DNA of 29,008 bases from an uncultured bacterium (GTDB lineage Bacteria; Patescibacteriota; Dojkabacteria; SC72). This document shows, piece by piece, positions 1-29,008 of this stretch; within the stretch, counting starts at the first letter, position 1, and each line of letters starts with the position of its first letter. Location: assembly GCA_938015795.1 (NCBI GenBank), contig CALLXA010000080.1:1-29008 (forward strand). The letters run 5' to 3'. The position numbers and the translations under genes were made by a program. The notes under the pieces were generated by a model. The model had not been told where the DNA came from and searched no databases. It saw nothing but the letters and a program-made list of their open reading frames with translations.

Positions 1-122
1 TACTGCCTAGAATAATCATACATTTATTGGTGTTTACGGTTATCGGAATTGTGGTATATTTATATAGATTCCATATTACAGCAGTATTGCTATATTGGAT
101 ATTCAGAGATACTTTAATATGA
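1..122 (+). CDS. 3' end of a hydrophobic membrane protein (truncated by window edge)
   Basis: Frame starting at nt 3 reads LPRIIIHLLVFTVIGIVVYLYRFHITAVLLYWIFRDTLI*; its TGA (120-122) overlaps the next ATG (119-121). Confidence 0.45.
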   Translation, partial: LPRIIIHLLVFTVIGIVVYLYRFHITAVLLYWIFRDTLI

Positions 123-355
123 AAAAATACAGTATGGACAAAGCAACTGCTGATACGATAACGGAGTGTAAGATTCTACTAATGGAGGCTGTCAAAGATA
201 TAGCCGAATTAAAAAACAATAGTGTTAGCAGAGAAGCATACAAGAACCTAGATGACAGAGTCAAAAATATAGAGGGTAGTATTAGTAAAATAACTTGGGC
301 AATAGTGATGGCTGTAATAGGGGCTGTGCTGTCTTTAGTTATTAAAAGTATATAA
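119..355 (+). CDS. Coiled-coil protein with C-terminal TM helix, XhlA-like/holin-like lysis protein
   Basis: LDDRVKNIEGSISK followed by hydrophobic ITWAIVMAVIGAVLSLVI; upstream of endolysin. Start at ATG 119 (ATGA coupling) or ATG 134 rather than TTG 95. Confidence 0.65.
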   Translation: MKKYSMDKATADTITECKILLMEAVKDIAELKNNSVSREAYKNLDDRVKNIEGSISKITWAIVMAVIGAVLSLVIKSI

Positions 356-356
356 G

Positions 357-815
357 ATGAAAATATTGGAAAGAGTGAAGGATATTAAGACGAGCAGTAT
401 TCTGCTAAACATAATTTTAGTAGTAGTCATCTCATTTGTAGGGTTGATTATTTACTGGAGCATAAGACCATACGATATTGTCCAATGGAAGATTGACCAA
501 TACCAAACCACGAAGCAAGAATATAAAGTAGGTGAAGTCTTAACCTACAGAACAGCATTTTGTAAGAGAGGAAACTACATAGCCCATCAGATGCGAAGAC
601 TAGAAGACGGAGTTGTTTATTTATTTCCAGATTTGTCATCAAGCACCACGGAGGGCTGTTTAGACTTCATCTCCACAAGCACTACCGTTCCAAATGTTCC
701 AACTGGAGAATATTTTTTTGAGATAGAGTTCATCTACAAAGTCAATCCAATCCGAGAAGTAAGATATACAATGCACAGCAATAGGTTCAAGATTGTAAAT
801 GACAATAACTTTTAA
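357..815 (+). CDS. Membrane-anchored protein with extracytoplasmic beta-rich domain (lysis cassette)
   Basis: N-terminal TM (ILLNIILVVVISFVGLIIYW), then a soluble beta-strand-rich region with two Cys; lies between the holin-like gene and the endolysin. Confidence 0.7.
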   Translation: MKILERVKDIKTSSILLNIILVVVISFVGLIIYWSIRPYDIVQWKIDQYQTTKQEYKVGEVLTYRTAFCKRGNYIAHQMRRLEDGVVYLFPDLSSSTTEGCLDFISTSTTVPNVPTGEYFFEIEFIYKVNPIREVRYTMHSNRFKIVNDNNF

Positions 816-826: not shown

Positions 827-1597
827 ATGGCGGAAATATATACTTCACTATTCAAAGGCAAGGTTCATATAACAACCCCGTATTCCAGTAAGCACCCTGC
901 TTTAGATATGGGGAATTACAAAACAAGAAATCCAATATACTCTCCAAACAAGCTCGGAAAAGGAAAAGTTTCCAAACAAACTACAAGTTATACATACGGA
1001 GGTGTATTATACAAAGATGCATTGACTCAATGGATTAAGTATGACAATGGTTTTGAGTCCTGCACAGTTCACGGTTCGGTTGCTGACAGAATACTAAAAG
1101 TAGGGGATTTGGTAAAAGTAGGACAGCTAGTTTACAGGACTGGAAATAAAGGTTACAGCAAAGGCGACCATCTTCACTACCAATTAAAGAAGAACGGAGT
1201 TCTGGTTGACCCTACAAAATATGTGATGAACGATATGCCCATTGAAGCCCCTACAACCCCTCCTGCACAGACGGAGTGTGAGAAACGAGTGATAGAACTT
1301 GAAGCACAGGTAGCGGGGCTTAAATCAGCTGTAGGGAGTGCAGAAGTGGTAATAAAAACTAGGGACGACTCTATTAGACTTTTAACGGAAAGAAATACCT
1401 ATTTGGAAGAAGTTACAAAAGAAACAAATAGCCAGTTCAAAGGGTTGGAGAAGTTACTAAAAGATATTCAAGACAAATGCGATAAGTTGTCCGAGGACTA
1501 CAAAGCAGTTTCAGAGGAGTTAAAAGAACTTAAAGAGGGCAGAGATACTTGGATTAACAGATTGGCAGATATATTACATAAGTTATTTACTAAATAA
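827..1597 (+). CDS. M23 family peptidase endolysin with C-terminal coiled coil
   Basis: Zn-binding motifs HxxxD (HPALD) and HxH (GYSKGDHLHYQL), GNKG loop, Pro/Thr linker, then about 100 aa heptad-rich tail. Confidence 0.9.
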   Translation: MAEIYTSLFKGKVHITTPYSSKHPALDMGNYKTRNPIYSPNKLGKGKVSKQTTSYTYGGVLYKDALTQWIKYDNGFESCTVHGSVADRILKVGDLVKVGQLVYRTGNKGYSKGDHLHYQLKKNGVLVDPTKYVMNDMPIEAPTTPPAQTECEKRVIELEAQVAGLKSAVGSAEVVIKTRDDSIRLLTERNTYLEEVTKETNSQFKGLEKLLKDIQDKCDKLSEDYKAVSEELKELKEGRDTWINRLADILHKLFTK

Positions 1598-2064: not shown

Positions 2065-2367
2065 GTGTCTTCTACCATCAAAGGTTGGAAACTTGCTATT
2101 CACGAAAGAGAGTGTTACAAGTGCAAAATCTGTGGAAGTAGTTATCAATTAACTGTTCATCACAAAATCCCATTGGCGAGAGGAGGGAAAAGTAATCCAG
2201 ATAATTGTGTTTGTTGGTGTCATATTTGCCATAACTTATTCCACAAAAGATATGGTTTAACCACTTCTGACGATTACGGAAATCCCGTTGGAGAAATAAG
2301 AGATACAAGAGTATCAAAACCATCAAGAAAGAGAAGAAGAAAGTTAAAAAAGAAGCACCATAGATAG
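2065..2367 (+). CDS. HNH endonuclease
   Basis: CxxC...LTVHHKIPLARGGKSNPDNCVCWCHICHNLFH; GTG start with strong SD GGAGGTG; very basic C-tail. Confidence 0.9.
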   Translation: MSSTIKGWKLAIHERECYKCKICGSSYQLTVHHKIPLARGGKSNPDNCVCWCHICHNLFHKRYGLTTSDDYGNPVGEIRDTRVSKPSRKRRRKLKKKHHR

Positions 2368-2438: not shown

Positions 2439-3368
2439 ATGAAAGATTTTGTAATCTATCATAACTACATACCAAAAGTAGGAGGGATAGAATCAGCAGT
2501 CTATAATTTGGCAAGTGGATTGAATAAAAAAGGCTACAATGTAACGATAGTCTATACAAGTGCCGAGAGCTATGAGAGTTTATTCCACTATGCCAAAGTA
2601 GCAGATGTCGTTAGAGTTGATACCAGAGAAATATATTGTGATGTGTGTTTAATAGCAAGTAATCATTTAATCCCTGATAACATAAAGGCAGATAGATACC
2701 TACAATGGGTCCACTCCGATTATGATAAATACAATCTAAAACTAACAAATAAAGGAAAGGTGGAGTATGTCGCAGTTAGTAAACATTGTTCAGAAGTAAT
2801 TAAGAAAAGGGAGAAGATAGAGTGTAAAGTTATTTATAACCTCATAGACCAAGATTTCGGAAATGATAAAAGAAAGATTTTAAGACTTGTTACCAATTCT
2901 AGAGTATCACCAGAGAAGGGATTTGAAAGGGCTTTCAAGTTAGCAAACTCATTAAAGGAAAGTAATATACGATTCTCTTGGGTTATCTATGGCGACAATT
3001 CTCATTATCCAAAAGAATATTGGGGTTGGATAGACAAGTTCAGACCTATTGAAGAAGTCCAATGGGTAGGATACAAAAGTGATGTTTCAATCGGATTAAC
3101 CAATGCTGATTATCTAGTTCAATTATCAGATTTTGAGGGTTGCCCTCTTTCAATCCTAGAAGCATTAAAGATGGAAGTTCCCTGCCTAGTAACAAACTGG
3201 GGTGGAGTAAAGGAACTCATAACAGACGGAGTTAATGGATATATTCTTCCAATGAATATGAAAGATATAGATGTGGACAAAATTGTGGATAAGATACCAA
3301 AGTTTAAGTATAAGCCACTTTCTAATGTGGATAGCTGGATTAAGTTAATAGAAAAGGATAATGGATAA
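2439..3368 (+). CDS. GT-B fold glycosyltransferase (GT4 / Glycos_transf_1-like)
   Basis: N-terminal GGIESAVYNLA motif; SRVSPEKG; C-terminal ADYLVQLSDFEGCPLSILEALKMEVPCLVTNWGGVKELITDGVNGY signature. Confidence 0.9.
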   Translation: MKDFVIYHNYIPKVGGIESAVYNLASGLNKKGYNVTIVYTSAESYESLFHYAKVADVVRVDTREIYCDVCLIASNHLIPDNIKADRYLQWVHSDYDKYNLKLTNKGKVEYVAVSKHCSEVIKKREKIECKVIYNLIDQDFGNDKRKILRLVTNSRVSPEKGFERAFKLANSLKESNIRFSWVIYGDNSHYPKEYWGWIDKFRPIEEVQWVGYKSDVSIGLTNADYLVQLSDFEGCPLSILEALKMEVPCLVTNWGGVKELITDGVNGYILPMNMKDIDVDKIVDKIPKFKYKPLSNVDSWIKLIEKDNG

Positions 3369-4062
3369 TTCAGAAGTAATATTCAAGCCAGTTACACAAA
3401 GGCACGATAGGGTTCTCATAGTTGGTGGAGGAGAAAGTCTAACGGATTTTGATATGGATTTACTAAAAGACTTCAAAGGAGCAATCATTTGTGTAAACAA
3501 TATCGTGTATCATCTTCCAAGAGCAGATTACTGGATAACTGTGGACCCAATGCACAACGGAGAACCACAAGTAGCATTAACAGACAAGGTGAAAGGTGTT
3601 TATTATTTCTGTGCCTTTCCAGACCTGAAAAAAGAGCCATTTGACAGTCCGTATTACAAAGCAGTTGATGATGTTCATTACCTAGAAAGGATAGTTCCTA
3701 TTAACGAAGAAGATGGAGGACAAGGAGATTATAGCTTACAAGAAGACAAGGACAAAATTACAACTGGGGATAGTTGTTATGGAGCATTAGGATTGGCATA
3801 CCATTTTGAAGCAAAAGAAATAATCCTACTCGGAATAGATGTTTACGGGTTCGGTCATTGGTATAACAAATCAGATGCCTACAACCGAGGGTGGGGGAAG
3901 AAGTTTAGAGAATACAAGAGCAAAGTTCCGTTGATATACAAACAGAGTGTTCCTCAATGGAATAAGAGGGGAGCAAAGGTGGTAAATGGTTCTCTTAACA
4001 GCAAGATTACTTGCTTTGAAAGAACCACACCAGAAAAAGCATTTACTTATTTTGACAAATAA
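3361..4062 (+). CDS. Maf/DUF115 (MptE-like) domain protein, putative glycosyltransferase
   Basis: VLIVGGGESL...IICVN...ADYWITVDP...GDSCYGALGLAYHFEAKEIILLGID matches the Maf/CstII-like pattern (xGxGPS...N...A...G...I.L.G.D). Confidence 0.7.
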   Translation: MDNSEVIFKPVTQRHDRVLIVGGGESLTDFDMDLLKDFKGAIICVNNIVYHLPRADYWITVDPMHNGEPQVALTDKVKGVYYFCAFPDLKKEPFDSPYYKAVDDVHYLERIVPINEEDGGQGDYSLQEDKDKITTGDSCYGALGLAYHFEAKEIILLGIDVYGFGHWYNKSDAYNRGWGKKFREYKSKVPLIYKQSVPQWNKRGAKVVNGSLNSKITCFERTTPEKAFTYFDK

Positions 4063-4064: not shown

Positions 4065-4229
4065 ATGGTAATAATAAAAACAATAAGAACATATTTTGAT
4101 GTTGTTCTAAACAAATCAATCACATCTGGATTTGTCAATCGTGTTCCACCTGCGAGGGCGAGAAAATTGCTTTCAATGGGGTTAGCAGAGGTGTTGGAAA
4201 TAGATAAGTTAAAAAAAAGAGAACAATGA
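4065..4229 (+). CDS. 54-aa hypothetical protein
   Basis: MVIIKTIRTYFDVVLNKSITSGFVNRVPPARARKLLSMGLAEVLEIDKLKKREQ*; starts 2 nt after the upstream stop; ATGA overlap with the next gene. Confidence 0.65.
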   Translation: MVIIKTIRTYFDVVLNKSITSGFVNRVPPARARKLLSMGLAEVLEIDKLKKREQ

Positions 4230-4888
4230 AGTTTATTAAAAAAGAAACATTTTATCCCTTTCCAGTTCACGAGTGGAATCTTCCTGCGGGACATACTTGC
4301 CCGTTCGCCAAAGATTGTAAAATTATGGTCAATCGCTATAGTGGGAAGTTCAATATCATTGGAGATAAGTTCCGTTGTTATGCAGCAATCTCCGAGAGGT
4401 TTCCTGCCGTAAGAAATATGAGATGGAAGAACTACGAAGAAGTAGTAGAGCTATTAAAGAAGAAAGAGATAATACAAATACCACCACGGGCAACCCATAT
4501 TAGAATACACGGGAGTGGAGATTTTTTCAGTCAAGAATATTTTGATATGTGGTTAGAAGTTTGTAGGAGAAATCCAAAGGTAAAGTTCTGGGCATTTACA
4601 AAAAGTCTTCAATTCTGGATAAACCGACTAGACCAGATACCAGAGAACTTGACACTACAGGCAAGTAAAGGTGGATTTCAAGACAATCTAATTAAGGTGT
4701 ATAATCTAAAGTATGCAGAGGTATTTACTGATATTGGAGAAGCAATCAGGAGTGGACTTCCCATAGATACAGATGATACCTATGCTATGAGTGGGAATCA
4801 GAGTTTTGCTTTGTTGGATAATAACAAATATTCAAAGAAAGTTCCGATTCAAGAGTTAATAGATAATTTTATCAAAACTTCCAAATGA
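4226..4888 (+). CDS. Phage gp88-like (radical-SAM-related) protein
   Basis: WNLPAGHTCPFAKDC...CYA...IRIHGSGDFFSQEY...FWAFTKS pattern typical of the GP88 family; three spaced Cys. Confidence 0.7.
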   Translation: MKFIKKETFYPFPVHEWNLPAGHTCPFAKDCKIMVNRYSGKFNIIGDKFRCYAAISERFPAVRNMRWKNYEEVVELLKKKEIIQIPPRATHIRIHGSGDFFSQEYFDMWLEVCRRNPKVKFWAFTKSLQFWINRLDQIPENLTLQASKGGFQDNLIKVYNLKYAEVFTDIGEAIRSGLPIDTDDTYAMSGNQSFALLDNNKYSKKVPIQELIDNFIKTSK

Positions 4889-5096: not shown

Positions 5097-5140
5097 TTAA
5101 TATGGACTATAAAAAGTGAGTGTTCCATATTTTAATGTGT

Positions 5141-5191
5141 GTTCCTGTGGGCTGGTAGGTTTACTCAACTTTCCTACCACCCTACAAGAGC
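5141..5191 (+). promoter_or_regulatory. Imperfect stem-loop in the leader of the replication initiator
   Basis: TGGTAGG (5153-5159) / CCTACCA (5173-5179), extended by GGG/CCC and TGT/ACA; ends just before SD AAAGGAG. Confidence 0.45.
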
Positions 5192-5205
5192 AGAAAGGAG
5201 TTTCA

Positions 5206-6039
5206 ATGGAAGAAATAATCAGCAAACGAGATGGTGATGCCTACGAAGTGATTGGTTACGAACCAGTTATTTTAGAGGAGAAAGAAAAAGAACCAGAAAT
5301 ATACAACCTACAATATCTGGTTTATCGGTTAGATATTCAAAGAGAATACAAGTTAAGTGATTTAGAAACTAAAATTATTAGTTTTATCTTAAGTTACTCA
5401 AATGTTTCGGACAACTTCTACTTCGGGAATAGTAGTTTAGCAAGGATATTTGAAAAGGTAGAACAGAGTATCTGCAATGCCATAACCGCTTTAGAGGAGA
5501 AAGGATTGGTTTCTTGTTCTTACAGAATGAAAGCAAATGGGGGGAAAGTTAGATATATCCGACTATTAGAAAACTCATATTCCAAGTATAAGAAAAGTTA
5601 TAGTCAGAATATAAGAAAAGTTATAAAGAATAATAATAAGATAAATAATAATAAGATAAATATATATATGTCCAATTTTTCTAGTTTCTGGGAACAATAT
5701 CCTAAAAAGGTAAGCAAAAAGAAAACCGAGGAGATATTTAATAGGATAGTAACTTCTAAAAAGAAAGAGCAAGAGATAATACAGGGACTTCTCAAATACA
5801 AGAAGAAGTGGCTAGGAGAAAAGACAGATATAAAATATATTCCAAACCCTACAACTTGGTTAAACCAAGCAAGATGGGAAGACGAAGTAATTATCAGCAA
5901 CGAACAGTTTAACAAGTATGCCAGAGATAGAGAAAAGAAGTGGGAAGAAGTTAAGCAAAAAGAGAAGATAGATTACAAGGTTGATGATGGTAGTGGTGGA
6001 CTCATATCATTAAAAGAGTTATTAAACAAGGAGAAATAG
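5206..6039 (+). CDS. Phage replication initiator (N-terminal winged HTH, C-terminal replisome-organiser-like domain)
   Basis: HTH-like NSSLARIFEKVEQSICNAITALEEKGLV; C-terminal FSSFWEQYPKKVSKKK...YIPNPTTWLNQARWEDE; SD AAAGGAG before ATG 5206; internal iterons. Confidence 0.85.
   Translation: MEEIISKRDGDAYEVIGYEPVILEEKEKEPEIYNLQYLVYRLDIQREYKLSDLETKIISFILSYSNVSDNFYFGNSSLARIFEKVEQSICNAITALEEKGLVSCSYRMKANGGKVRYIRLLENSYSKYKKSYSQNIRKVIKNNNKINNNKINIYMSNFSSFWEQYPKKVSKKKTEEIFNRIVTSKKKEQEIIQGLLKYKKKWLGEKTDIKYIPNPTTWLNQARWEDEVIISNEQFNKYARDREKKWEEVKQKEKIDYKVDDGSGGLISLKELLNKEK
5564..5670. repeat. Putative replication origin: three 16-nt iterons at 23-nt period plus AT-rich tandem repeat
   Basis: TATTAGAAAACTCATA (5564), TATAAGAAAAGTTATA (5587), TATAAGAAAAGTTATA (5610); then AATAATAATAAGATA twice (5629-5658) and a TA run. 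Confidence 0.75.
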
Positions 6040-7107: not shown

Positions 7108-7581
7108 ATGGAACTTTCAGAGGTTAGAAAATTAGCATTAGAGTTAATCAAAGAAAATGGGGCAACCTGTTGGTTTACATTTTCAGAAGCAAGAAGACAA
7201 CTTGGCTGTTATTCTCCAAAGGATAATACAATCCATATTTCAAAGAGTTTAGCAGAACTAAACAATAAGAAAGTAGTCAAAGATGTTCTACTACACGAGA
7301 TAGCACACTCTTTAACAAGAGGACACGGACACGACAGAGTCTTCAAGAGATTATGTTCAGAGTTAGGCTGTTCTCAAAAGACTTTCATTGAATTGGAAAT
7401 TAACAAAGAAGAAAAGAGATACCTATACACTTGTAAGAATTGTGGGAAAGTAATCCAAAGACATACTAAAAATTACACAACTGCTTGTTTGAGTTGTTGT
7501 AAAAAGTATAACAAGGGAGAGTATAGCAAAAAGTATTTATTTAATATTAGTGAAAATCCTTTATATGAAAAACGAGTTTAA
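7108..7581 (+). CDS. SprT-like zinc metalloprotease
   Basis: RRQLGCY, LLHEIAH (HExxH), GHGHDRVFK, then CKNCG...CLSC zinc ribbon. Confidence 0.85.
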   Translation: MELSEVRKLALELIKENGATCWFTFSEARRQLGCYSPKDNTIHISKSLAELNNKKVVKDVLLHEIAHSLTRGHGHDRVFKRLCSELGCSQKTFIELEINKEEKRYLYTCKNCGKVIQRHTKNYTTACLSCCKKYNKGEYSKKYLFNISENPLYEKRV

Positions 7582-9134: not shown

Positions 9135-10040
9135 ATGAAAGAAATGGTTTACAAACAAAACGGAATAGACATTTACTACTACAATTACAAAGAACCATTT
9201 ATTAAGTTCAAAGGTGGTTTTGGATTTGAAGGAGCATTAGGCTATTCCTTGGACAAAAAGAAAGTTCAATGTCATTTCTGCGGAGAGTTTTACAAATCAA
9301 TCAGAAGTTCCCATATTCAGACCTGCGAGGGTGTAAAGAGATATGAGAAGAAGAACAATGTTCTCATAGAAGACACCAACGACTACAAAGATATTGTTGG
9401 ACTCAATAGGACTTCGGCTCTCATAGGGGAAGAAACAAGATTGAAGTTAATCCAAAATGCCATTGACTGTAACAAGAAATTACAAGTAAGTAAGTGGAAT
9501 GATAAAGAACAAAAAAAGGAAAGGGGGAAAAAGCTATCAGAAAGAAACAGAAGAAGAACAGGAGAAAAAATCTCAATGGAAAAGAGAAACAAATCAGGAA
9601 CTTGCCCTGTTCAATTACTAGAAAGAATAAAAGAAGTTCATCAGGCTCTTGGTCATACTCCTACAAAAAAAGAGTTCTACAATTTCTTCAAGGGAAAGTA
9701 TCTGGGAGCAATATACCAAGTCCACGGAAGTTGGGTAGAAGCAGTTAAAAAGGCAGGATTTATTCCTGTATCTTTGTCTGATGAGCATAGGGAGTATGAA
9801 TATACAAACGAACAGTTATTACAGGCTCTACGAGAGTTCTACGAGAGGTTTGGAAGACTATCTACTTCAAGCGACCATACCAGAGGACTACTTCCAAGTT
9901 ATTGGACATACACAAACAGGTTTGGAAGTATTAACAACGCCAGAAGACAAGCAGAGCTTCCAGTTAAGTATAAGGTTGGAACATTTAAGTATATCTACGA
10001 TTACTCAAGCTGTAATAGTAGGTATCTGGTTAAGAAATAA
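9135..10040 (+). CDS. DNA-binding protein: MucR/Ros-like Zn finger plus two homing-endonuclease-associated repeats
   Basis: VQCHFCGEFYKSIRSSHIQTC; repeats LLERIKEVHQALGHTPT...HGSWVEAVKKAG and LLQALREFYERFGRLST...RFGSINNARRQA; no nuclease motif seen. Confidence 0.7.
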   Translation: MKEMVYKQNGIDIYYYNYKEPFIKFKGGFGFEGALGYSLDKKKVQCHFCGEFYKSIRSSHIQTCEGVKRYEKKNNVLIEDTNDYKDIVGLNRTSALIGEETRLKLIQNAIDCNKKLQVSKWNDKEQKKERGKKLSERNRRRTGEKISMEKRNKSGTCPVQLLERIKEVHQALGHTPTKKEFYNFFKGKYLGAIYQVHGSWVEAVKKAGFIPVSLSDEHREYEYTNEQLLQALREFYERFGRLSTSSDHTRGLLPSYWTYTNRFGSINNARRQAELPVKYKVGTFKYIYDYSSCNSRYLVKK

Positions 10041-17745: not shown

Positions 17746-17763
17746 GTTTAACAGAGTAGTGGT

Positions 17764-18819
17764 ATGAATAGAGCAAAGAAAGACACACTCCTGCGATTAA
17801 ACAAAGAATACTGGGAGAACAGAACTCTGTTACGAGAGGTGGAATCAGAAGTCAAAGGGCTAAAAATAAGTGGCGAAGTTCTAAAGGTTTACGACCAAGC
17901 ACTAGAGAATATCCGTAAAGAAATAAACAATATCTACAGTAAATATTCCGACAAAACAGGACTAGATGTAGCAGAGATAACAAGGATATTGGACGGAGTG
18001 GACAGAAACAAGTTTGTAGAGAGTATAGCAGTCAATATGAAAAGACGAGGATTGAAGTTTGAAGATTATTTTGACAAGGGTTATATCAAGAGATTAACAC
18101 GATTAGAGGCTCTAAAACAGCAGATATATTGGGAGATACAAGGTATAGCACCAGAGATAACAGAAATAGAAAGAAAAGGTTTTGAGAAAATGATTAGGGA
18201 TAGTTACAGAACAGCCAAAACAGATTTAAGAAATCAAACAGGAGGTTCTACGAGCTTCAACGACCTAGATACAAAAGTAGTAGAAAAGATTATGAATAGT
18301 CGTTGGGTTAATGGTAATTATTCTTCCAGAACATTTGCTAACATAGACAATTTTGCTTTACAAGCAAGAGATATAATTGGTGGAGGATTATCCACGGGTA
18401 TATCACTAGAGAAGATGTCAAGACAGGTTAGAGATGCCTTTGGTGTCGCCAAGTATGAAGCTACAAGATTGGTTAGAACCGAAACAGGATACTTTCACAA
18501 CCAAGTAGAACTACAAAGCTACAAAGACGAGGGTGTTGAGTATTACAGATTGCTTGTTGTGTTAGATGGTAGGACTTCAGATATATGTTTAGACCTGGCC
18601 GAAGACGATAGAATATACAAAACAAGCGAGATTGAAGTTGGAGAAAATTATCCTCCCTTTCACCCGAATTGTAGGACAGTTCCAGAAGTGGTTTTCCCTA
18701 ACGAATTGATAGGAAAGGAAGTTTTAGACCTACAAGAGAATACAGATGATTCAATGTTCTCCGAGATATATGAAACAAGCATACAAGGTTTAGAGAGTCA
18801 AGGTTGGAAAAGAAGATAA
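17764..18819 (+). CDS. Minor head morphogenesis protein, SPP1 gp7 / Mu F-like
   Basis: ATRLVRTET...LDGRTSDIC...NYPPFHPNCRT. Confidence 0.9.
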   Translation: MNRAKKDTLLRLNKEYWENRTLLREVESEVKGLKISGEVLKVYDQALENIRKEINNIYSKYSDKTGLDVAEITRILDGVDRNKFVESIAVNMKRRGLKFEDYFDKGYIKRLTRLEALKQQIYWEIQGIAPEITEIERKGFEKMIRDSYRTAKTDLRNQTGGSTSFNDLDTKVVEKIMNSRWVNGNYSSRTFANIDNFALQARDIIGGGLSTGISLEKMSRQVRDAFGVAKYEATRLVRTETGYFHNQVELQSYKDEGVEYYRLLVVLDGRTSDICLDLAEDDRIYKTSEIEVGENYPPFHPNCRTVPEVVFPNELIGKEVLDLQENTDDSMFSEIYETSIQGLESQGWKRR

Positions 18820-18901
18820 TTGACTTGGAGATTAAGATGTGAAATGATATATATATAACAACCTGCAGAGGGTTATACTGTTAAGTTTATCTAATGTCAT
18901 T

Positions 18902-19411
18902 ATGACAGAAGAAATAAAAAAGACACCAGAGGCAGAAACTCCAGAAGCCCCAGAAAAGGTGGAAGTCAAGGAGGAGAAACTTTTAACACAAGACCAGTTT
19001 AACAAGGCACTTCAAGAACGATTAGCAAAAGAAAAAGCAAAGTTCACAGAAGAAGTGAAAACTGTTAAAGAAGAAGCAGAGAGGTTAGCAAAACTTACTG
19101 CCGAAGAAAAAGAAAAAGAAGTAGCAAGAAAAAATGAGGAGGAGTTAAAAACAAAATACAAGGAAGTAGCAATAAGGGAGAATAGACTAGATGCTATTGA
19201 ATTATTTGCAGAATCCAAAGTCCCGACAGAGTTAGTTACTTATGTAATTGACGAAGACAAGGACAAGACATTAGAAAATGCCGAAGTATTTGTTAAGACT
19301 TTTAATGAGTCTGTTGCTAAATCAGTAGCAGAGCAATTAAAGGGGACTCCACCTAAAGATGTCTCTACTTCAACCGATACTGGTGTGAAGAAAGTTATTA
19401 AATCGTTTTAG
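18902..19411 (+). CDS. Capsid scaffolding protein (DUF4355-like)
   Basis: Charged helical protein, TQDQFNKALQERLAKEK, KLTAEEKE, GTPP near the C-terminus; directly before the MCP. Confidence 0.85.
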   Translation: MTEEIKKTPEAETPEAPEKVEVKEEKLLTQDQFNKALQERLAKEKAKFTEEVKTVKEEAERLAKLTAEEKEKEVARKNEEELKTKYKEVAIRENRLDAIELFAESKVPTELVTYVIDEDKDKTLENAEVFVKTFNESVAKSVAEQLKGTPPKDVSTSTDTGVKKVIKSF

Positions 19412-19436
19412 AAAATAACTTTAGTGAGAAATTAAG

Positions 19437-20273
19437 ATGGCAAAACAAGATGCATTAAGTATCTTTTTATCCGACGGAAGCACAGAGGAGAAGTTAATGG
19501 AGTCATACGCAGAAGTAGTTGATATGATTCAGAAGACAGCAGTCTCCTCTCAAATCAAGAATGTAAATCTTTCTGGCGACCCAGAGAGCGGTTCTGTTGA
19601 GGTAAGAAGATTGATGACTTCTGCAAGTCAAGCATATGGAACAGCAAGAAGTGCAGGTGGGGACAAAATCTCCAATAACGGTGTTACAATTAACCTTGAC
19701 CAAGACAAAGAAATCGTAGAAGAAGTAGAGTGGAAAGATGTCCAGTTATTTGGAATATCAGATATTCTAGCAAAGAGAATGACCAATCACGAGATGGCAA
19801 TGGTCAGAGAACTAGACACAGCTTTCTTCGCAGAAGCGGAGTCTGCAGGTTCAGAAGAAACAATTACAAGCTCAACCATAGAAGACCAGATTGAGGAGTT
19901 GATACAATCAGTAGAAACAACTTCAAATAATAATGTTGATGGTGTAGATAGAGATATGCTTGTATTAGTAGTTAAACCTGCTATTTACGGACAATTAAGG
20001 AACTATATAGATTCACTTCCAAATCCTTTAGGTGGTGGAGTTGATGCAAAGAAGTTCCACGATGTTAGAATATTCTCTAACACAAGACAGACCAAAGATG
20101 CTATTTGTATGGCAGTTGGTTCAATAGCACAACCTGTTGTTGCTCAACCATACGAAGTAAGCAGAATCCCATTATCCAATGCAGTAGCAATAGAACTTTA
20201 CTACTCATACGGAACACAGGCAGTAATGTCTGATTTGATTAAGTGGGCTACTTTAAGTGCGGTAAGTGCTTAA
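19437..20273 (+). CDS. Major capsid protein
   Basis: 278 aa after the scaffold; TINLDQDKE, LVLVVKPAIYGQL, ELYYSYGTQAV resemble the HK97 fold; ends SAVSA. Confidence 0.85.
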   Translation: MAKQDALSIFLSDGSTEEKLMESYAEVVDMIQKTAVSSQIKNVNLSGDPESGSVEVRRLMTSASQAYGTARSAGGDKISNNGVTINLDQDKEIVEEVEWKDVQLFGISDILAKRMTNHEMAMVRELDTAFFAEAESAGSEETITSSTIEDQIEELIQSVETTSNNNVDGVDRDMLVLVVKPAIYGQLRNYIDSLPNPLGGGVDAKKFHDVRIFSNTRQTKDAICMAVGSIAQPVVAQPYEVSRIPLSNAVAIELYYSYGTQAVMSDLIKWATLSAVSA

Positions 20274-20772: not shown

Positions 20773-21121
20773 TAGTTTCAAAACCAAAATAGAAGAAACT
20801 TTTTACGACAAGCTCTTTAATATTTACAATAAAGAACAAACTGTTGATGATGAGGGGTGGGCTAAAGACAAATCAACCACGAAGAAGTCTTCCGTCTATG
20901 GCAATGTAAGGTTTAATAACCTAGCAGAGCTACAAGAAGAATACGGAATCGAGGAAGAAATAGACATAGCCATTACAACTAGCAGTTCGGTTGAATTAGG
21001 AGATATACTGGAATACGAGGGAAATGAATACCGAGTAATCGGCTCTATTCCCTACGATTCCCATAATTTAATATTCGCAAAGAAATGGTTATCACAGTCC
21101 TCAACCTTGACAAGTGTATAA
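20759..21121 (+). CDS. Head closure/stopper protein (gp16-like)
   Basis: Beta-rich 120 aa; ELGDILEYEGNEYRVI; neck synteny. Confidence 0.7.
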   Translation: MKIPSSFKTKIEETFYDKLFNIYNKEQTVDDEGWAKDKSTTKKSSVYGNVRFNNLAELQEEYGIEEEIDIAITTSSSVELGDILEYEGNEYRVIGSIPYDSHNLIFAKKWLSQSSTLTSV

Positions 21122-21516: not shown

Positions 21517-21845
21517 TAGAACCTAAAAAGAGTGTATATACAATTTTAAGTGCTTTAGATGGAGTTAATGTCTATCAAGCAAGACCAGAGCAAGTAATTG
21601 AATATCCTTGTATAACTTTCTTTGTTAGTAACAATTCACCAACCTATGTTTTGGAAAAAGAAATAGGGTATCAAGAAATGGAAGTAACGATAGATATTTA
21701 CGCGAAGACGAGTAGTGAGAGTGGAGAGTTGTTATCCACTCTGGAACAGGCAATGATTAGTAATGGTTATCGTTTAACCTACTGTTCAGATGTTCCAAAT
21801 GATGATGCAAGTCATCTAACAACTGTATTTAATATAATAGGATAA
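21513..21845 (+). CDS. Tail terminator (gp17-like)
   Basis: EYPCITF, EVTIDIYAK, LEQAMISNGY; precedes the tail tube gene. Confidence 0.75.
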   Translation: MIEPKKSVYTILSALDGVNVYQARPEQVIEYPCITFFVSNNSPTYVLEKEIGYQEMEVTIDIYAKTSSESGELLSTLEQAMISNGYRLTYCSDVPNDDASHLTTVFNIIG

Positions 21846-22650: not shown

Positions 22651-22970
22651 GATTTGGCAAGATATGGGAAGACGGAGAAGAATTAGCTATTAAAATAGGT
22701 TTGAATCTTACTACATATTGGGAAACCACTCCAAAGAGGTTGGAAAAGTATATTAAGGTGTATATTGAGAAAGAAAAACAAAGAGCATTAGAAATGGACT
22801 GGAATAACTATAACTTGGGAAAGTATGTAGCTTTCGCTTTCAATAGTCCTAAAAAATATCCAAGTAAACCATTTCTACAGGAGGAGAAAAAATCAGGAGT
22901 AATGACAGCAAAAGAAATGGAAGAAGTAATGAGAAGAAATACATTAACATTGGGAGGTAAAATCAAATGA
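22345..22970 (+). CDS. gpGT-like fusion chaperone (about 208 aa) made by -1 frameshift
   Basis: Post-shift sequence ...FGKIWEDGEELAIKIGLNLTTYWETTPK... matches gpT-like chaperones; the track's TTG 22701 is probably not a real start. Confidence 0.8.
22578..22584 (+). promoter_or_regulatory. Programmed -1 frameshift site T TTT TTA
   Basis: In-frame GGT TTT TTA; the -1 frame is open from 22584 for 39 codons into the 22701 ORF and on to 22970. Confidence 0.85.
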
Positions 22971-25255
22971 GTAAGATAGAATCAATAGAAGTTTTAATAC
23001 AAGCAAATGCCGACCAGTTTAGGCGAGAGGTTGCCGATGTTAGAGGGCAATTAACACAACTACAAGGTTCTGCTACTGGTATAGGCAAGGGTGTAAACAG
23101 AGATTTTACAGGCTCTATTCTCAAAGCAAATATCGCTACTCAAGTTTTAATAGGGGCGGTCAAGACAGTAGGGAGAGCCATATTCAATACAGGAGCAAAA
23201 GTTGCTAGCCTTGGAAGTCAATATACAAGATTAAAGGTTGCCACGGACACGGTTGCTCGTAATATGGGTATGACCAAAACAGAAGTGGACGACTTGAGAG
23301 CAAGTTTAGAAGATGCCAATACCTATGGTTCACAAGCGGAAAATGTTATTAAGACACTAGCCTTGTCAGGACTCGTTGATATGGCTAACGGATTAAAAGC
23401 AGTTGATGCTAGAACAGGAGAAACGGTTGAGGGAGTAAAGGCTTTGGTTCTTGGTATGAAAGACCTAGGAGCTTCAGCAGGAGTTGATTCAGCCACAGCC
23501 ATAGAAAGATTAACCAAGTTCGTAAGAACAGGAAACCAGAGTTTCGCAGACGGAATAATTGAGTTAGGTAATATGAGATATGCCTACCAAAGATATGGTG
23601 ATTCAATAGGAGTAGCAGGAGAAAAACTAACAGAACAAGCAAGGGCAACCGCAAGACTTGACCTAGTAATGGCAGAGAGTCAAAAGTCCTTCGGAGCATA
23701 TGCTAACACTATGCAAACTTCAGCAAAGGCTATGGATTCCACAAAAAATGCGATAAAGAGTATGTTTGAAAGACTTGGAAGTTATCTAGAGCCAATGTTT
23801 GCGAGTATAGCAAGGGCATTATTCCTTTTCGTAGATGGTATGAGGCAATCCTTAATCGGTTCTGCCGATTCTTTTAGAAACTGGGCTAGTAAAGTAGCAA
23901 GTTACATAATCGCAGTTGTTCGTATTGTAGGAACTTTATTATCAAGACTTCCTGTAATAGGAAAGAACTTTACAGCCTTGAGGGATTTTGCTCTTAAACC
24001 AGTAGCACAAACTATGGGAGAAGTATCAGGAGCAACGGAGGGGACAGGAGATTCAATGGACAAGACAGCCAAAAGCACAAAAGCACTAAAGAAAGAATTG
24101 CTAGGTTTAGCAAGTTTTGACGAACTTAATGTTCTTGAACAATCAGAAACATCAGACGGAGGGGGAGGAGCAGGAGCAAGTAAAGGTGCTTCAATGGGTG
24201 GTGGTATGGACTTCAAAGAAATGATGAATACAGAGGAGCTGAATAACAGTATAAACGATATTAACAAAAGGGTTGATGAGATAATAAAGAATTGGACGGA
24301 CAAGTGGAACTATGCAGTTAGCATTGTTAAACCTATTTTTGAAAGTATTTGGAAATGGATAAACGAGAAAATATGGACACCTCTCAAGACTTTTTGGACC
24401 GAAACTCTTAAACCATTACTAGACTTCTGGTGGAGTATGGTTCAAAAAGAGATAGTTCCTGCCCTAGAAAGACTAGGGGCAATGTTAAGAGAAGTTTTTG
24501 GCATAGCAGGAACACAAGGAGATGTAGTAAAGGAAATATTTAAGACAATCGCACAGATAATAGGTGTAGTCCTAGTTGGTGCGGTAACAGCAGTAATATG
24601 GATTATTGCCAGAGTAATAGATGTCTTTACAGGATTTTTCGCAATAATAAAAGCGGGTATTCAATACTCAATTAGTCAATGGAACAATCTTGTAAATAAA
24701 CTAGCAGATGTAATACTATGGGGAAGAAGTCTAAAGGATAATTTCAATCAATATATAGAAAGTATCAAGGGATTCTTCAACGGATTATTGTTATACATTA
24801 AAGGAGTCTTTACGGGCAATCTTGAAAAGGCTTGGAGTGGTGTAAAACAGATGTTCAGTTCAGTATGGAGTGGTATAACAGCTATATTCAAATCAAACAT
24901 AAATACAATAATTAAACTAATCAACGGGCTGATAGGAGGATTAAACAAAATACAAATCCCGTCAATATTTGGTTCAAAACCAGTAGGGATTAACATAGCA
25001 CCGATACCATACCTAGCACAAGGTGGAATAGTAGAAAGCCCTACACTTGCTATGCTTGGAGAGGCAGGGAAAGAGGCTGTTCTGCCACTAGATAATAATA
25101 CAGCTTGGATAACAGAACTAGCAAATAAACTAGGTAGAGGAGGTGAAAATCTAAACCTTGTTGTCAAGATAGGAGAAGACACCATATTTGAAAAAGCTAT
25201 CTCATACATAAATGATAAGAGTATGAGAACAGGAGCGACTATACTTAATATTTAA
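22967..25255 (+). CDS. Tape measure protein
   Basis: 762 aa Ala/Gly/Ile-rich helical protein; LASFDELNVL; aromatic periodicity; IPYLAQGGIV...AMLGEAGKEAVLPL. Confidence 0.95.
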   Translation: MSKIESIEVLIQANADQFRREVADVRGQLTQLQGSATGIGKGVNRDFTGSILKANIATQVLIGAVKTVGRAIFNTGAKVASLGSQYTRLKVATDTVARNMGMTKTEVDDLRASLEDANTYGSQAENVIKTLALSGLVDMANGLKAVDARTGETVEGVKALVLGMKDLGASAGVDSATAIERLTKFVRTGNQSFADGIIELGNMRYAYQRYGDSIGVAGEKLTEQARATARLDLVMAESQKSFGAYANTMQTSAKAMDSTKNAIKSMFERLGSYLEPMFASIARALFLFVDGMRQSLIGSADSFRNWASKVASYIIAVVRIVGTLLSRLPVIGKNFTALRDFALKPVAQTMGEVSGATEGTGDSMDKTAKSTKALKKELLGLASFDELNVLEQSETSDGGGGAGASKGASMGGGMDFKEMMNTEELNNSINDINKRVDEIIKNWTDKWNYAVSIVKPIFESIWKWINEKIWTPLKTFWTETLKPLLDFWWSMVQKEIVPALERLGAMLREVFGIAGTQGDVVKEIFKTIAQIIGVVLVGAVTAVIWIIARVIDVFTGFFAIIKAGIQYSISQWNNLVNKLADVILWGRSLKDNFNQYIESIKGFFNGLLLYIKGVFTGNLEKAWSGVKQMFSSVWSGITAIFKSNINTIIKLINGLIGGLNKIQIPSIFGSKPVGINIAPIPYLAQGGIVESPTLAMLGEAGKEAVLPLDNNTAWITELANKLGRGGENLNLVVKIGEDTIFEKAISYINDKSMRTGATILNI

Positions 25256-25266: not shown

Positions 25267-25647
25267 ATGGCAATATCTTATTTGTGTAAAATAGAGGGAA
25301 CAGATTTAACCCCATATCTAAAGACCTATGATGTTTCCTACGAGGAGATGTGGAGCGAAGCGAATAGAAATATGTCGGGTATGTTGAAAGCAAGTTACAT
25401 AGCTACTACTCCAAAGATATTCCTAGAGTTTAGACAAATGACCAAGGCAGAAATCTCAACTATTATGGGACTATTAGATAATCATAGTTTTACAGTCGCT
25501 TGGTATGATGAAACAGACGATACCTACAAACAAGACGAGTTCTATCGTGGAGAATTAAAGGTTGGTATTCGTGATTTGGATAGTGAGATGTATAAAGAAC
25601 TTTCTGTCAATCTAATAAGTTTTGGAACATTGGAGGCAAGTGCTTAA
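25267..25647 (+). CDS. Distal tail protein (Dit-like)
   Basis: Follows TMP; NRNMSGMLKA...FTVAWYD...FYRG; ends LEASA. Confidence 0.75.
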   Translation: MAISYLCKIEGTDLTPYLKTYDVSYEEMWSEANRNMSGMLKASYIATTPKIFLEFRQMTKAEISTIMGLLDNHSFTVAWYDETDDTYKQDEFYRGELKVGIRDLDSEMYKELSVNLISFGTLEASA

Positions 25648-27854
25648 TGTATGATATTACTAACGACTTCAAAACTGCTATAAAGGGAAACTCAAGGCAG
25701 ATTAAGGCAAGAATAGTAAACGGAGATGATACCATCAGCCAAGCAGACGACCTACAAAGCATAGAGATTACTTCCGAGGGTGGATTATGTAGAACAGTAA
25801 TGCGACAAGCAAAAGGGGTTTACTTCGGGACTCATACTATGTTAGGCAATACAGTATTTCTAGAAATGGGGGTAGTTCTTCCAGATACTTCTGTAGAATA
25901 TATCAATTACGGAGGCTTCAAAGTTACAGAGGTTACAGAAGACATAGGAGGGAAAATCTATACAGCAAAAATGTATGACCGAATGTATGAAGCACTTCAA
26001 CCATATGCTCTTACTCCTACATACCCTATAACAGTATTACAATTACTTCAAGCAATATGCACGGAATTGGGTTGGACACTTGCTACAACGACATTTGCTA
26101 ATAGTTCAATATCATTAACAGCCGAGTTGTTTACGGAATCACAAATGACATATAGGGATATTCTCAATATGATAGCAGAGGCTTCAGGAACAATTATGTT
26201 TTTCAATAAAGATGATGAGTTAGAGTTGAAAACGATAAGTGCTTCTGTTTTAGAAACTCTTAATCCATCAGAGTTATTAAACCTAAAGTTAGAACCAATT
26301 TACGGAGAACTAAACTCTCTAGTATTAAGCAGACAACCTCAAGAGGACAATGTAGTAGAAAAAGATGATGAAAGTATAGCTATTTATGGGCTTAATGAGT
26401 TTAAGATTGTAAATAATTATATTCTGGATTCTGACAGAGCTACATACATAACACCAATATTCACAGTATTAAACGGAATAAAGTATTATCCTTTCAAAGC
26501 AGATACAATAGGACTTGGGTATTACGAGGTTGGAGATAGAATAAAAGTCAAGGACTTGGGAGCAAACGAATACGAAGTCCTAGTAATGAATATATCTCTT
26601 AAAATATCTGGAGGATTAAGCGAGGTTTTAGAGTGTAAGATACCAGAAAAAACTTCAACCAATTATGACTATGCAGGAATAATAGGAAGAACAATTAAAC
26701 AAACGGAAATCAAAGTAGATAAACAGCAGGGAGAAATAGCAATATTATCGGAAGAAGTAGGAAATGCTTTAGTAGTTCCAAGACAGCCAGAGCCACCAGA
26801 AAGCCCAGATACAAACGATCTATGGCTAGATACTGACGACAATATCATTTACATTTATGATGGTGCTACTTGGCAACCGACTTCAATATCTCCAGACACC
26901 CTAGATGGATATTACACAAAAGAGCAGACAGAAGCAGAGATAAGTTTAACAGCAGACGAGATAAACCTATCCGTTGCTTCTACACAGGAAACTGCTTCAA
27001 CTGCACAAGCTCTAGCAGAAGAAAACAGCACGGACATTGAGTCCGTTCAGAGCAATATAACAGCCCTACAAATAGAAGTAGATGGACTAGATGTAAAAGT
27101 AGAAGGTATCGGTGGAACAAACCTATTAAAAAACAGTTCAGGACTCAAAGGAAGCATAGAGGAGTGGCAAGAGTTTGATGAGAACGGAGATTTACTAGAT
27201 GCCGATAATGATGGGACAGTAGTCCAAACGACTGATACAGAAGAAAATACCGAGAGTGGAGCAGGAATACAAATAGACGAACAATTTATAGTCCAAACGA
27301 TACCTACAATCATAGGAGGCTCTTACACTTTCTACTGTAGGTTTAAGAAGTTAAACGATTTGGATTTAACAATATCAGGAGTAGCCGAAATGATTCCTAT
27401 TACAGCAGGAGAATATGTTGATGAAACTTGGGCTGTATTCAAGACCACATTTATAGCAACGGATTCTACGACTACAATCAAGATAAGTAATACAGCAAGT
27501 GGAGTGGGTAGTTCTGGTTTACTTGCCGATATGGTTTGTAAGCTAGGAGAAGTAAATGGTTGGGTTCAAGCTCCAAATGAGGTTTACGGAAGAAACTTCA
27601 AGTTTGACAAGGACGGATTTTCAGTAACCTCTCTAACAGACGAGTTCAAAGCAGTTCTAGACAATATTAAGTTAGGCATATACGATACAAGTAGTGGAGT
27701 TGATAAAATAATGGCTCTATTCAGTAAAGATGCAGGACTAATAACAAAGCTAGTGGCACAAGACGAGTTTGTTCTCCAGAGGTATCAGAATAGTGCAAAA
27801 GCAGTAAGGTTCATACCTACTGCGACAGGCTGTATGATTACGGTAAACAACTAA
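25647..27854 (+). CDS. Tal/baseplate hub protein with coiled-coil and carbohydrate-binding-like extension
   Basis: Hub-like N-terminus (GLGYYEVGDRI), PEPPESPDTNDLWLDT linker, coiled coil, GGTNLLKNS start of a beta-sandwich module. Confidence 0.8.
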   Translation: MYDITNDFKTAIKGNSRQIKARIVNGDDTISQADDLQSIEITSEGGLCRTVMRQAKGVYFGTHTMLGNTVFLEMGVVLPDTSVEYINYGGFKVTEVTEDIGGKIYTAKMYDRMYEALQPYALTPTYPITVLQLLQAICTELGWTLATTTFANSSISLTAELFTESQMTYRDILNMIAEASGTIMFFNKDDELELKTISASVLETLNPSELLNLKLEPIYGELNSLVLSRQPQEDNVVEKDDESIAIYGLNEFKIVNNYILDSDRATYITPIFTVLNGIKYYPFKADTIGLGYYEVGDRIKVKDLGANEYEVLVMNISLKISGGLSEVLECKIPEKTSTNYDYAGIIGRTIKQTEIKVDKQQGEIAILSEEVGNALVVPRQPEPPESPDTNDLWLDTDDNIIYIYDGATWQPTSISPDTLDGYYTKEQTEAEISLTADEINLSVASTQETASTAQALAEENSTDIESVQSNITALQIEVDGLDVKVEGIGGTNLLKNSSGLKGSIEEWQEFDENGDLLDADNDGTVVQTTDTEENTESGAGIQIDEQFIVQTIPTIIGGSYTFYCRFKKLNDLDLTISGVAEMIPITAGEYVDETWAVFKTTFIATDSTTTIKISNTASGVGSSGLLADMVCKLGEVNGWVQAPNEVYGRNFKFDKDGFSVTSLTDEFKAVLDNIKLGIYDTSSGVDKIMALFSKDAGLITKLVAQDEFVLQRYQNSAKAVRFIPTATGCMITVNN

Positions 27855-27871
27855 TTTAGAGTAAAAACATA

Positions 27872-29008
27872 ATGTCATTAAGTGGAACAATAAGTGGTAG
27901 TTTTACAGGGGTAAGCACTAGTAATGCTAGACCTAAAATAAACTGGACAGCGACACAAAACATAGCAGGTAACTACTCTGATATTACAGCAACCCTAGTT
28001 TATTACAGATACGGAAGTTATTATGCCTACAATGGTTCTCACTCTGTTAGTTTGTCTATCAATGCGAATAACAATACTGGAAACTATGCATTTGATTTAA
28101 GAGGCACAGCACCTCTATCCGATACAATACGAAGTAGGACAGTCCGAGTTTACCATAATGCAGACGGAACAAAGTCCTGCAATATATCTTTCTCTTGTGA
28201 TACAGATACAAGTTTTGGCACAGGTAGTGCAAGTGCGACAGTTACATTAGACACCATACCTCGTGCAGCTACAATAACAAGCACCCTAGCCCATACCATA
28301 GGAGGCAACCTTGCCTATACATTAACCAATCTAGGGAGTTTCTATGTAAAATTAGTCCTACTCGTTTGGAACGGAACAGAATATGTAGAAGTCATTAGTT
28401 CAGAAAGAGGGACAGGGACAAGTGGTGAAATAGAGCTAGGAGCTACGGAAAACAATATTATGTATGAAGCAATGCCAAATGTAACGAGCAGAGCAGGAAT
28501 ATTAAGAGCCTATACCTATTCGGATAGTGGATATACAACTCAAGTAGGAAGTTACCAAGACAAAGCAGGAACGATATCAATAAATCAAGCTACTAACAAG
28601 CCTACATTTACTACATTTACAGTTGGAAACCTAGACAAGACAATAGCAAATACCGATAAGTATTCAAATGTTCTAGTAAGCAGTTCAACTTCAACCCTAC
28701 TAGGTGCAGATACTAAAATGATTAAGGGATATTCAAAGTTAAGAGCTGTCATTACAAGTGCAAACAAAATGGTGGCTCTCAATTATGCGACATCAGTTAA
28801 GTATAGGTTCATAGTAGGAAGTGCATACAAGGAAGAAAACTATTCGGCAGATTCTACTGTCAATCTAGATGTGGACAATGCCACTACGAATTCGGTATCA
28901 GTAACAGCATACGATTCCAGAAGTCTAACAACCCTAGTCGCAGATGCTAGTTCCATCACAAACAATGCGAACTATGTTCCTGTATCGCTTTGGGGATTAA
29001 CATTAACC
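27872..29008 (+). CDS. Siphovirus DUF859-like tail/baseplate protein (3'-truncated)
   Basis: Open 379 codons to the window end: NWTATQNIAGNYSDIT...VYHNADGTKS...VTLDTIPRA; absent from the track because it has no stop. Confidence 0.8.
   Translation, partial: MSLSGTISGSFTGVSTSNARPKINWTATQNIAGNYSDITATLVYYRYGSYYAYNGSHSVSLSINANNNTGNYAFDLRGTAPLSDTIRSRTVRVYHNADGTKSCNISFSCDTDTSFGTGSASATVTLDTIPRAATITSTLAHTIGGNLAYTLTNLGSFYVKLVLLVWNGTEYVEVISSERGTGTSGEIELGATENNIMYEAMPNVTSRAGILRAYTYSDSGYTTQVGSYQDKAGTISINQATNKPTFTTFTVGNLDKTIANTDKYSNVLVSSSTSTLLGADTKMIKGYSKLRAVITSANKMVALNYATSVKYRFIVGSAYKEENYSADSTVNLDVDNATTNSVSVTAYDSRSLTTLVADASSITNNANYVPVSLWGLTLT

Follow-up and report, generated by a model that had tools for sequence, protein, structure and literature searches.

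Restriction-site avoidance in phages is reportedly the subject of work going back to Sharp in 1986 and Rocha et al. in 2001. Here, we analyzed a stretch of 29,008 bases (the window) that makes up the entire contig C80 (CALLXA010000080.1) of a metagenome-assembled genome (MAG) classified as Dojkabacteria (GCA_938015795.1), and that covers the greater part of a tailed-phage genome, the phage being probably virulent. In double-stranded DNA phages, Type II palindromes are under-represented by way of synonymous changes. Non-temperate phages and orthodox Type II sites show the strongest avoidance, and for about one viral genome in ten a near-complete site elimination was reported (Rusinov et al. 2018, PMC6286503). 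The contig follows this pattern, in that Type II palindromes are depleted through synonymous codon choice. Unlike in the surveyed phages, about 35 words are purged at once, several of them asymmetric, and the candidate host is an uncultured 0.75-Mb bacterium of the Candidate Phyla Radiation (CPR) with a single recognizable restriction-modification (R-M) locus. Restriction-site avoidance in general is therefore already known; its breadth here is extreme.

Phages may also be compared with respect to chemical protection of their DNA. Hypermodification clusters combine a C5-methyltransferase, a TET enzyme and a glycosyltransferase (Burke et al. 2021, PMC8256090), and the contig likewise encodes a glycosyltransferase of the TET-associated family PF20691 (TAGT). 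In contrast to these clusters and to the glucosyl-hydroxymethylcytosine of the T-even phages, the 29 kb revealed no domain of a methyltransferase, a TET enzyme or a hydroxymethylase, and the strong site avoidance argues against an effective global shielding of the hypermodified-DNA type.

Depleted words and codon choice

Exact counting yielded a single copy each of GATC (26817), TCGA (20949), ACGT (14235), GGCC (18597), CCGG (14442) and CGCG (21701), and none of GTAC, CATG and GCGC. These counts and coordinates had been read off by eye in a first-pass annotation of the sequence, and every one of them proved exact on recount. For GATC, GTAC and CATG, base composition predicts 89 copies, dinucleotides about 83 and a maximal-order Markov model 57–92. 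As a further null, synonymous codons were permuted among positions encoding the same amino acid in the 49 genes (100 shuffles), by which both the proteins and the codon usage are kept. This null predicts 89 copies of GTAC, 68 of TCGA, 66 of GATC, 53 of CATG, 48 of ACGT, 21 of GGCC and 19 of CCGG; the lowest counts in any shuffle were 75 (GTAC), 39 (CATG) and 47 (GATC), and none of the 100 came near the observed values. Across the purged words, 0–2 copies were seen against 13–89 expected, with no comparable shuffle. CpG stands at 0.52 of expectation and five of the purged 4-mers contain CG; the CG-containing palindromes lie 20- to 50-fold under the dinucleotide-aware expectation. Hence, the depletion holds against the Markov and the codon-shuffled nulls alike, with ratios far from 1. 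An origin in codon or dinucleotide bias, against which the first-pass annotation had cautioned, is not borne out, as the dinucleotide, trinucleotide and codon-shuffle nulls all predict tens of copies. The accompanying description of CTAG, AGCT and TGCA as abundant applies to CTAG (117 copies, at expectation), whereas AGCT (72 copies, 0.7-fold) and TGCA (54 copies, 0.5- to 0.7-fold) are mildly low because the hexamers AAGCTT, GAGCTC, TTGCAA and GTGCAC are purged.

Two scans, one of 617 distinct REBASE site patterns and an unbiased one of all 4-, 5- and 6-mers, added about 25 further 5- and 6-base words to the purged set, asymmetric ones included, which brings the total to about 35. Taken together, 32 purged motifs occur merely 31 times on both strands of the 29 kb. 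Selection by several 4-base cutters, as initially proposed, thus understates the breadth of the purge, which extends to 5- and 6-base and to asymmetric (Type IIS-like) sites. Observed and expected numbers for these additional words are as follows.

CTNAG: 0 observed, 80 expected
RAATTY: 1 observed, 54 expected
ACGC/GCGT: 6 observed, 50 expected
GAATG: 7 observed, 44 expected
GAGAC: 2 observed, 39 expected
GGATG: 1 observed, 33 expected
CASTG: 2 observed, 33 expected
CTCTTC: 0 observed, 25 expected
GTMKAC: 0 observed, 25 expected
GTSAC: 1 observed, 24 expected
CAAATT: 1 observed, 23.5 expected
CATCG: 2 observed, 23 expected
TTTAAA: 0 observed, 21 expected
TTATAA: 2 observed, 19 expected
GAATGG: 0 observed, 14 expected
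ATTAAT: 0 observed, 13.5 expected
CCWGG: 1 observed, 13 expected
TTGCAA: 0 observed, 13 expected
GGNCC: 3 observed, 13 expected
CAATTG: 0 observed, 9 expected
AAGCTT: 0 observed, 8 expected
GCNGC: 2 observed, 8 expected
GTTAAC: 0 observed, 7 expected
CTTAAG: 1 observed, 7 expected

The purge is centered on palindromes. Among 4-mers, 7 of the 14 eligible palindromes are depleted at least 8-fold, compared with 1 of 120 other words (Fisher P 2e-7); among 6-mers, the purge reaches 8 of 18 palindromes, compared with 8 of 1185 other words (Fisher P 5e-12). When hexamers are tabulated as a core flanked by one base on each side, the palindromic diagonal holds 0–2 copies nearly throughout. The asymmetric words found in the unbiased scan are purged on both strands, and the majority of the purged 5- and 6-mers fit REBASE patterns. 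Palindromes that are spared include CTAG, TTAA, ATAT, TATA, AATATT, CATATG, ATGCAT, CTGCAG, TAGCTA, TCTAGA and TAATTA.

At the codon level, the mechanism is directly visible. Aspartate is encoded by GAT once and by GAC 35 times when the next base is C, as opposed to 318 and 168 times elsewhere, and histidine before G is always CAC (20 codons, no CAT). Likewise, the tally is 0 of 83 for valine GTA before C, 0 of 70 for tyrosine TAC after G and 0 of 130 for isoleucine ATC after G, and none of 169 methionine ATG codons is preceded by C. Leucine CTN precedes AG in 0 of 369 cases, whereas TTR does so in 35 of 371. The purge is therefore made by context-dependent synonymous codon choice, acting in all three frames, and not by an overall codon or dinucleotide bias; that the choice flips exactly where the neighboring base completes a word places the selection on the DNA word rather than on the proteins or on codon usage in general.

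Related phages and the candidate host

Related phages were sought with queries from the terminase-to-capsid block (15175–20273), which also served for the comparison of orthologues. The portal protein matched 80 viral contigs and 17 genome contigs; its cultured relatives, from phages of Streptococcus, Lactococcus, Enterococcus and Brochothrix, do not exceed 41% identity. The purged set differs in each of the portal relatives. Locus L060 (IMGVR_UViG_3300012983_000129), with 45% G+C, lacks GATC, GTAC, CATG, GGCC, CCGG, CTNAG, GAGAC, CTCTTC and CASTG, and L039 lacks GATC, CATG, GGCC, CCGG, GGATG and CTCTTC yet contains 84 GTAC and 101 ACGT. L002 and L082 are devoid of AGCT, GGCC and CTNAG and have kept GATC and GTAC, while L010 has 61 GATC but neither GTAC nor CATG. 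Because the sets differ among relatives, the avoidance is host-specific, neither inherited nor mutational. By the number of palindromes depleted at least 10-fold under the dinucleotide model (8 of 15 testable ones of 4 bp and 11 of 23 of 6 bp), the contig is among the most extreme of its relatives. No 4-mer was purged in the cultured temperate relatives TP712 and MissB1 or in three 29-kb chunks of the MAG.

A comparison with the closest relative, L082, resolves this at individual sites. Four orthologous genes with 45–77% amino-acid identity contain 21 GATC, GTAC or CATG sites in L082, and at 17 of these the two encoded amino acids are identical in the contig, where the site is lacking. AGCT occurs 11 times in the same genes of the contig and not once in those of L082. 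This makes the purges reciprocal, lineage-specific and, relative to the divergence of the proteins, recent. Sister contigs with reciprocal purges constitute a natural experiment, from which the R-M specificities and methylation motifs of an uncultured lineage could be predicted.

Some further observations concern individual relatives. In L060, L039, L048 and L010, which come from other metagenomes, the purge is about as extreme as in this contig and affects different sets of words. CATTC recurs among the purged 5-mers of relatives; GAATG/CATTC belongs to the set in L039, L047, L060, L010, L042 and L086 and is depleted 6-fold here. L088, on a 49.6-kb contig of a Candidatus Saccharibacteria MAG, and L086, on a 179.6-kb contig of a Bacilli MAG, are portal relatives with 52–53% identity that may be prophages, as they lie inside long MAG contigs; no word is purged in L088, and 4 of 16 palindromes of 4 bp are purged in L086.

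Regarding the host, the top genome match of the portal (71% identity) is a contig of Candidatus Dojkabacteria bacterium UBA2222. A class-wide genome search found this locus in G173, a genome from the family of this MAG but from another genus; a portal search in the 40 nearest genomes gave no match. The relatives of the MAG are genomes of 0.6–0.9 Mb, as expected of CPR bacteria. An independent host signal came from the sequences upstream of the start codons. In the phage, the hexamer TAA[GCT]TT peaks at positions −21 to −19, and 19 of 43 open reading frames (ORFs) have it within −22 to −19. For the remainder of the MAG the maximum lies between −22 and −19, ahead of 48 of 433 long ORFs, as opposed to roughly 1.5 at any other position. 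Phage and MAG alike make only weak use of Shine-Dalgarno sequences. The hexamer also splits the portal relatives (recorded for loci L002–L031, L045, L055, L082 and L083): TAA[GCT]TT, together with few Shine-Dalgarno sequences, characterizes 19 closer contigs, among them that of UBA2222, whereas the hexamer is lacking in every Bacilli-type and cultured relative, all of which rely on Shine-Dalgarno sequences. The hexamer is thus a usable marker of host lineage. Because of the related portal contigs within the family and the shared, position-locked hexamer, there is a fair, though not conclusive, case that the phage infects Dojkabacteria, and it would then represent a rare phage lineage tied to a CPR host.

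Restriction-modification systems and competing explanations

The MAG contains one clear R-M locus, located on contig C114 (L106, 2319–7013, minus strand). It comprises a PF01555 methyltransferase of 626 aa, a protein with a KilA-N domain and a third protein whose end matches PF19778 (RE_endonuc); the KilA-N gene sits between the other two, and the endonuclease gene runs off the contig end. By its domains, this pairing may be read as a Type III-like Mod/Res arrangement. As the MAG has one Type III-like locus and no methyltransferase of the C5 or Dam class, the purged words find no counterpart in the binned host itself.

We therefore consider the repertoire of the lineage, surveyed in 100 species of the family and 221 species of the class, with enzyme specificities taken from Pfam family names alone. 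C5 methyltransferases occur in 24 of the 100 family species and strong matches to Dam-class methyltransferases in about 18. DpnII-family endonucleases were found in 6 of the 100, three of which are weaker or partial matches, and at least three family genomes have complete cassettes of a PF01555 methyltransferase, a PF04556 (DpnII) endonuclease and a PF02086 methyltransferase:

G002:C25:624-3077, DpnII-like cassette
G010:C27:10253-12724, DpnII-like cassette
G200:C6:15417-17852, DpnII-like cassette

The same order of methyltransferase, endonuclease and methyltransferase is found in the pneumococcal DpnII (GATC) cassette. RE_TaqI (TCGA) is present in two species of the class, both in this family, and RE_Alw26IDE (GTCTC) in one, again in this family; in all cases the genes adjoin methyltransferases. 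RE_MjaI, which would correspond to the spared CTAG, was found in none of the 100 family species and in one species elsewhere in the class. Enzyme families matching purged words thus exist in the lineage, scattered over few species each, as far as can be told from domain assignments. The match between avoided set and R-M repertoire, for which the first-pass annotation had looked to candidate hosts, is suggested at the level of the family, for DpnII, TaqI and Alw26I, and is not seen in the MAG.

One purged word stands apart from all others. CAACA occurs 5 times on the sense strand against 50 expected (10724, 12921, 13707, 16878 and 17052, plus strand), whereas its complement TGTTG is found 26 times, against 27 expected. 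In the strand-specific scan, it is the sole word purged in one orientation; here, too, context-dependent codon choice is the means, and the two orientations are interleaved along the contig. No relative and none of the MAG genes displays such a one-orientation purge of CAACA. In coliphage T7, the sites of the Type III enzyme EcoP15I are reportedly all in one orientation. The contig resembles T7 in that an asymmetric word is strongly biased to one orientation and the only clear R-M locus of the MAG is Type III-like; it differs in that the bias is incomplete and inverted pairs remain. Moreover, all phage genes lie on one strand, which makes a cause at the RNA level equally possible. Candidate explanations are an orientation bias against a Type III enzyme or a target at the RNA level.

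In our view, the purged set probably reflects restriction-site avoidance integrated over the pan-immune pool of a host lineage, likely Dojkabacteria. Restriction endonucleases would select, word by word, for the loss of their recognition sequences, with every lost site removing one chance of cleavage on entry, and the removal would proceed almost entirely through synonymous codon swaps wherever a neighboring base would complete a word. About 35 words far exceed what one such host cell could impose; the set would thus be the integrated footprint of many patchily distributed R-M systems met over time in the host lineage, most likely these ultra-small CPR bacteria. The scattered occurrence of matching enzymes fits such a pool and not selection by the single binned host. 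Selection on restriction sites, already suspected in the first-pass annotation, is well supported at the sequence level, since the depletion is real, independent of bias, centered on Type II palindromes and lineage-specific among relatives, and a match to a host repertoire is suggested at the family level only. CPR genomes encode few defense systems per cell (PMC12259885), and about 35 words as opposed to a single R-M locus in a 0.75-Mb genome would illustrate defense at the population level in CRISPR-less, system-poor bacteria (PMC12259885).

Several observations weigh against this interpretation. The MAG has no match to PF00145 (C5 methyltransferases), PF02086 (Dam class) or PF07669 (Eco57I), its PF02384 hits are marginal, and its own DNA is not purged of these words, with ratios mostly between 0.6 and 1.2. 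RE_HaeIII (GGCC) is present in none of the 100 family species and in one species elsewhere in the class, though GGCC is purged; furthermore, each Pfam endonuclease family takes its name from a single enzyme and its members may differ in specificity, and the numbers are small. ACGC/GCGT, GAATG, CAAATT, GAATGG and ATAAGC have no matching pattern in the Biopython REBASE list, and TTGCAA fits that list solely via its core TGCA, which is itself not purged; we assume that restriction enzymes selected against these words as well, and presumably against every other. The phage has 36% G+C compared with about 31% in the MAG, and its link to the host consists of binning in two MAGs and the shared upstream motif, with no physical link. 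Finally, the part of the genome absent from the contig could carry a modification gene.

Alternatively, the depletion might be a side effect of codon usage or of a bias in dinucleotides, mutation or repair, or else reflect a general structural avoidance of palindromes; the low CpG, the five purged 4-mers that contain CG and the strongly purine-rich coding strand could be taken to point that way. We regard this as highly improbable, as nulls that keep dinucleotides, trinucleotides, or the proteins together with codon usage predict tens of copies, codon choice flips solely where a neighbor completes the word, many palindromes are spared while asymmetric words are purged, and relatives of similar composition purge other words. 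It is also improbable, if somewhat less so, that some words are avoided owing to the phage's own nucleases or to defenses other than R-M. Two HNH-type genes are present (HNH, 2065–2367; HNH-repeat, 9135–10040), the list used offers no known enzyme for several of the purged words, and classical Type II restriction does not explain the one-orientation purge of CAACA; on the other hand, about 35 specificities are more than a genome of about 33 kb can encode, most of the purged words are textbook Type II sites, and no cognate methyltransferase was found in the contig.

More weight is due to mis-binning, which we nevertheless consider unlikely: the purge would be driven by restriction, but in a different host of low G+C that possesses a very large number of R-M systems, and binning by composition would have produced the Dojkabacteria link as an artefact. 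The single R-M locus of the MAG and its undepleted DNA would be explained in this way, as would the G+C content of the phage, about 5 points above that of the MAG. More distant portal relatives occur in MAGs of Bacilli, Erysipelotrichaceae, Mycoplasma and Saccharibacteria, the cultured relatives infect Firmicutes, and a portal match was found in merely 2 of 99 further family genomes. This has to be set against two genera of one family that each carry a related phage contig, with 71% portal identity, and against the hexamer at about −20 and the low Shine-Dalgarno use common to phage and MAG, for which the Bacilli-type relatives show the opposite.

Under restriction-site avoidance integrated over a host pool, a bolder and rather doubtful extension is conceivable. 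The purged list might reveal, in usable form, which R-M specificities circulate in an uncultured CPR lineage as a whole, with sister phages recording their own host populations; it would then include specificities for which no enzyme has been described (GAATG, ACGC/GCGT, CAAATT, TTGCAA and GAATGG), and CAACA would be the site of the Type III-like system of the MAG. If true, ultra-small bacteria with one or two defense loci per cell would, as a population, match the barrier breadth of Helicobacter-like, R-M-rich bacteria.

Gene content, DNA modification and residual sites

The contig is the longest of the MAG (746,620 bases, 132 contigs, 92% complete). Every called gene is on the plus strand, and the coding share is 94%. 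Pfam and PHROG searches of its ORFs revealed a tailed-phage layout, in which the TAGT gene matches its Pfam family with E 1.5e-33 and the small terminase ORF is a putative assignment. The first-pass annotation had counted the three genes marked below among its glycosyltransferases.

827–1597, plus strand: M23 peptidase
2065–2367, plus strand: HNH protein
2439–3368, plus strand: GT4 glycosyltransferase (marked gene)
3361–4062, plus strand: MptE/Maf-like protein (marked gene)
4226–4888, plus strand: GP88 (marked gene)
5116–6039, plus strand: HTH protein
7108–7581, plus strand: SprT-like protein
9135–10040, plus strand: HNH-repeat protein
13054–13785, plus strand: ParB_N-like protein, upstream of TAGT
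13775–14635, plus strand: TET-associated glycosyltransferase family, PF20691 (TAGT)
14808–15239, plus strand: putative small terminase ORF
15175–16389, plus strand: large terminase
16411–17745, plus strand: portal
within 15175–20273, plus strand: minor head, scaffold and major capsid genes of the terminase-to-capsid block
22967–25255, plus strand: tape measure
up to the contig end, plus strand: tail proteins, one gene being 25647–27854

None of the ORFs of the 29 kb matched an integrase, a DNA methyltransferase, TET/JBP, a hydroxymethylase or a known anti-restriction domain; for the base-modifying enzymes, this refers to Pfam domains at E ≤ 0.01. The lack of integrase, methyltransferase and anti-restriction domains fits the pattern described for non-temperate phages (PMC6286503). 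Since related viral contigs measure 31–35 kb, the contig is probably incomplete, with about 3–6 kb of the phage genome absent from it. No terminal repeat or circular overlap of 20–100 bases was found at the contig ends, and a megablast search with 8 kb of the contig against 50,697 phage records gave no match.

The gene content also bears on the state of the phage DNA, which the first-pass annotation had thought not to be globally shielded by base modification, favoring protein or surface targets for the glycosyltransferases. The purged words include some made of A and T only (TTTAAA, ATTAAT and AAATTT) and some made of G and C only (GGCC, CCGG and GCGC), which implies that a genome-wide replacement of any one base, of a kind that protects against Type II enzymes, cannot have been effective while the biases evolved. 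The first part of the suggestion is therefore reasonable but indirect, resting on the purge of words with every base and on the lack of base-modifying enzymes among the ORFs of the 29 kb; as far as the sequence tells, the phage DNA would be unmodified or only locally modified, and a sequence-specific or partial modification is possible. The second part does not follow from a lack of shielding, because characterized PF20691 members glycosylate DNA bases (PMC8256090). The specificity reported for phage TET clusters is GpC[C/T] (PMC8256090). A GpC-directed modification as the cause of the spared AGCT and TGCA was considered and ruled out, as GGCC, GCGC and GCNGC contain GpC and yet are purged. 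With respect to the sparing of AGCT, only two relatives (L016 and L019) have TAGT, and relatives free of TAGT both keep and purge this word.

Of the sites that escaped the purge, several are the sole copies of their word:

18594–18600: sole GGCC, overlapping the sole CCWGG (CCTGGCC), within the gene for the minor head protein
20949–20952: sole TCGA
21700–21704: sole CGCG (ACGCG)
26817–26820: sole GATC, inside the tail protein gene 25647–27854
28888–28893: sole RAATTY site (GAATTC; 54 expected)

Five of the 31 residual sites lie within 14235–14852 (ACGT at 14235, CCGG at 14442, GCGT at 14499, GTGAC at 14638 and CAGTG at 14848), compared with about 0.6 sites expected per 600 bp. This cluster begins in the 3′ half of the TAGT gene and reaches the beginning of the putative small terminase ORF. 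Judging from this concentration of sites, the segment may have been acquired more recently and would then still be incompletely purged. TAGT homologues are present in 2 of about 100 related loci, L016 and L019, and ParB_N homologues occupy the same position in many relatives without TAGT.

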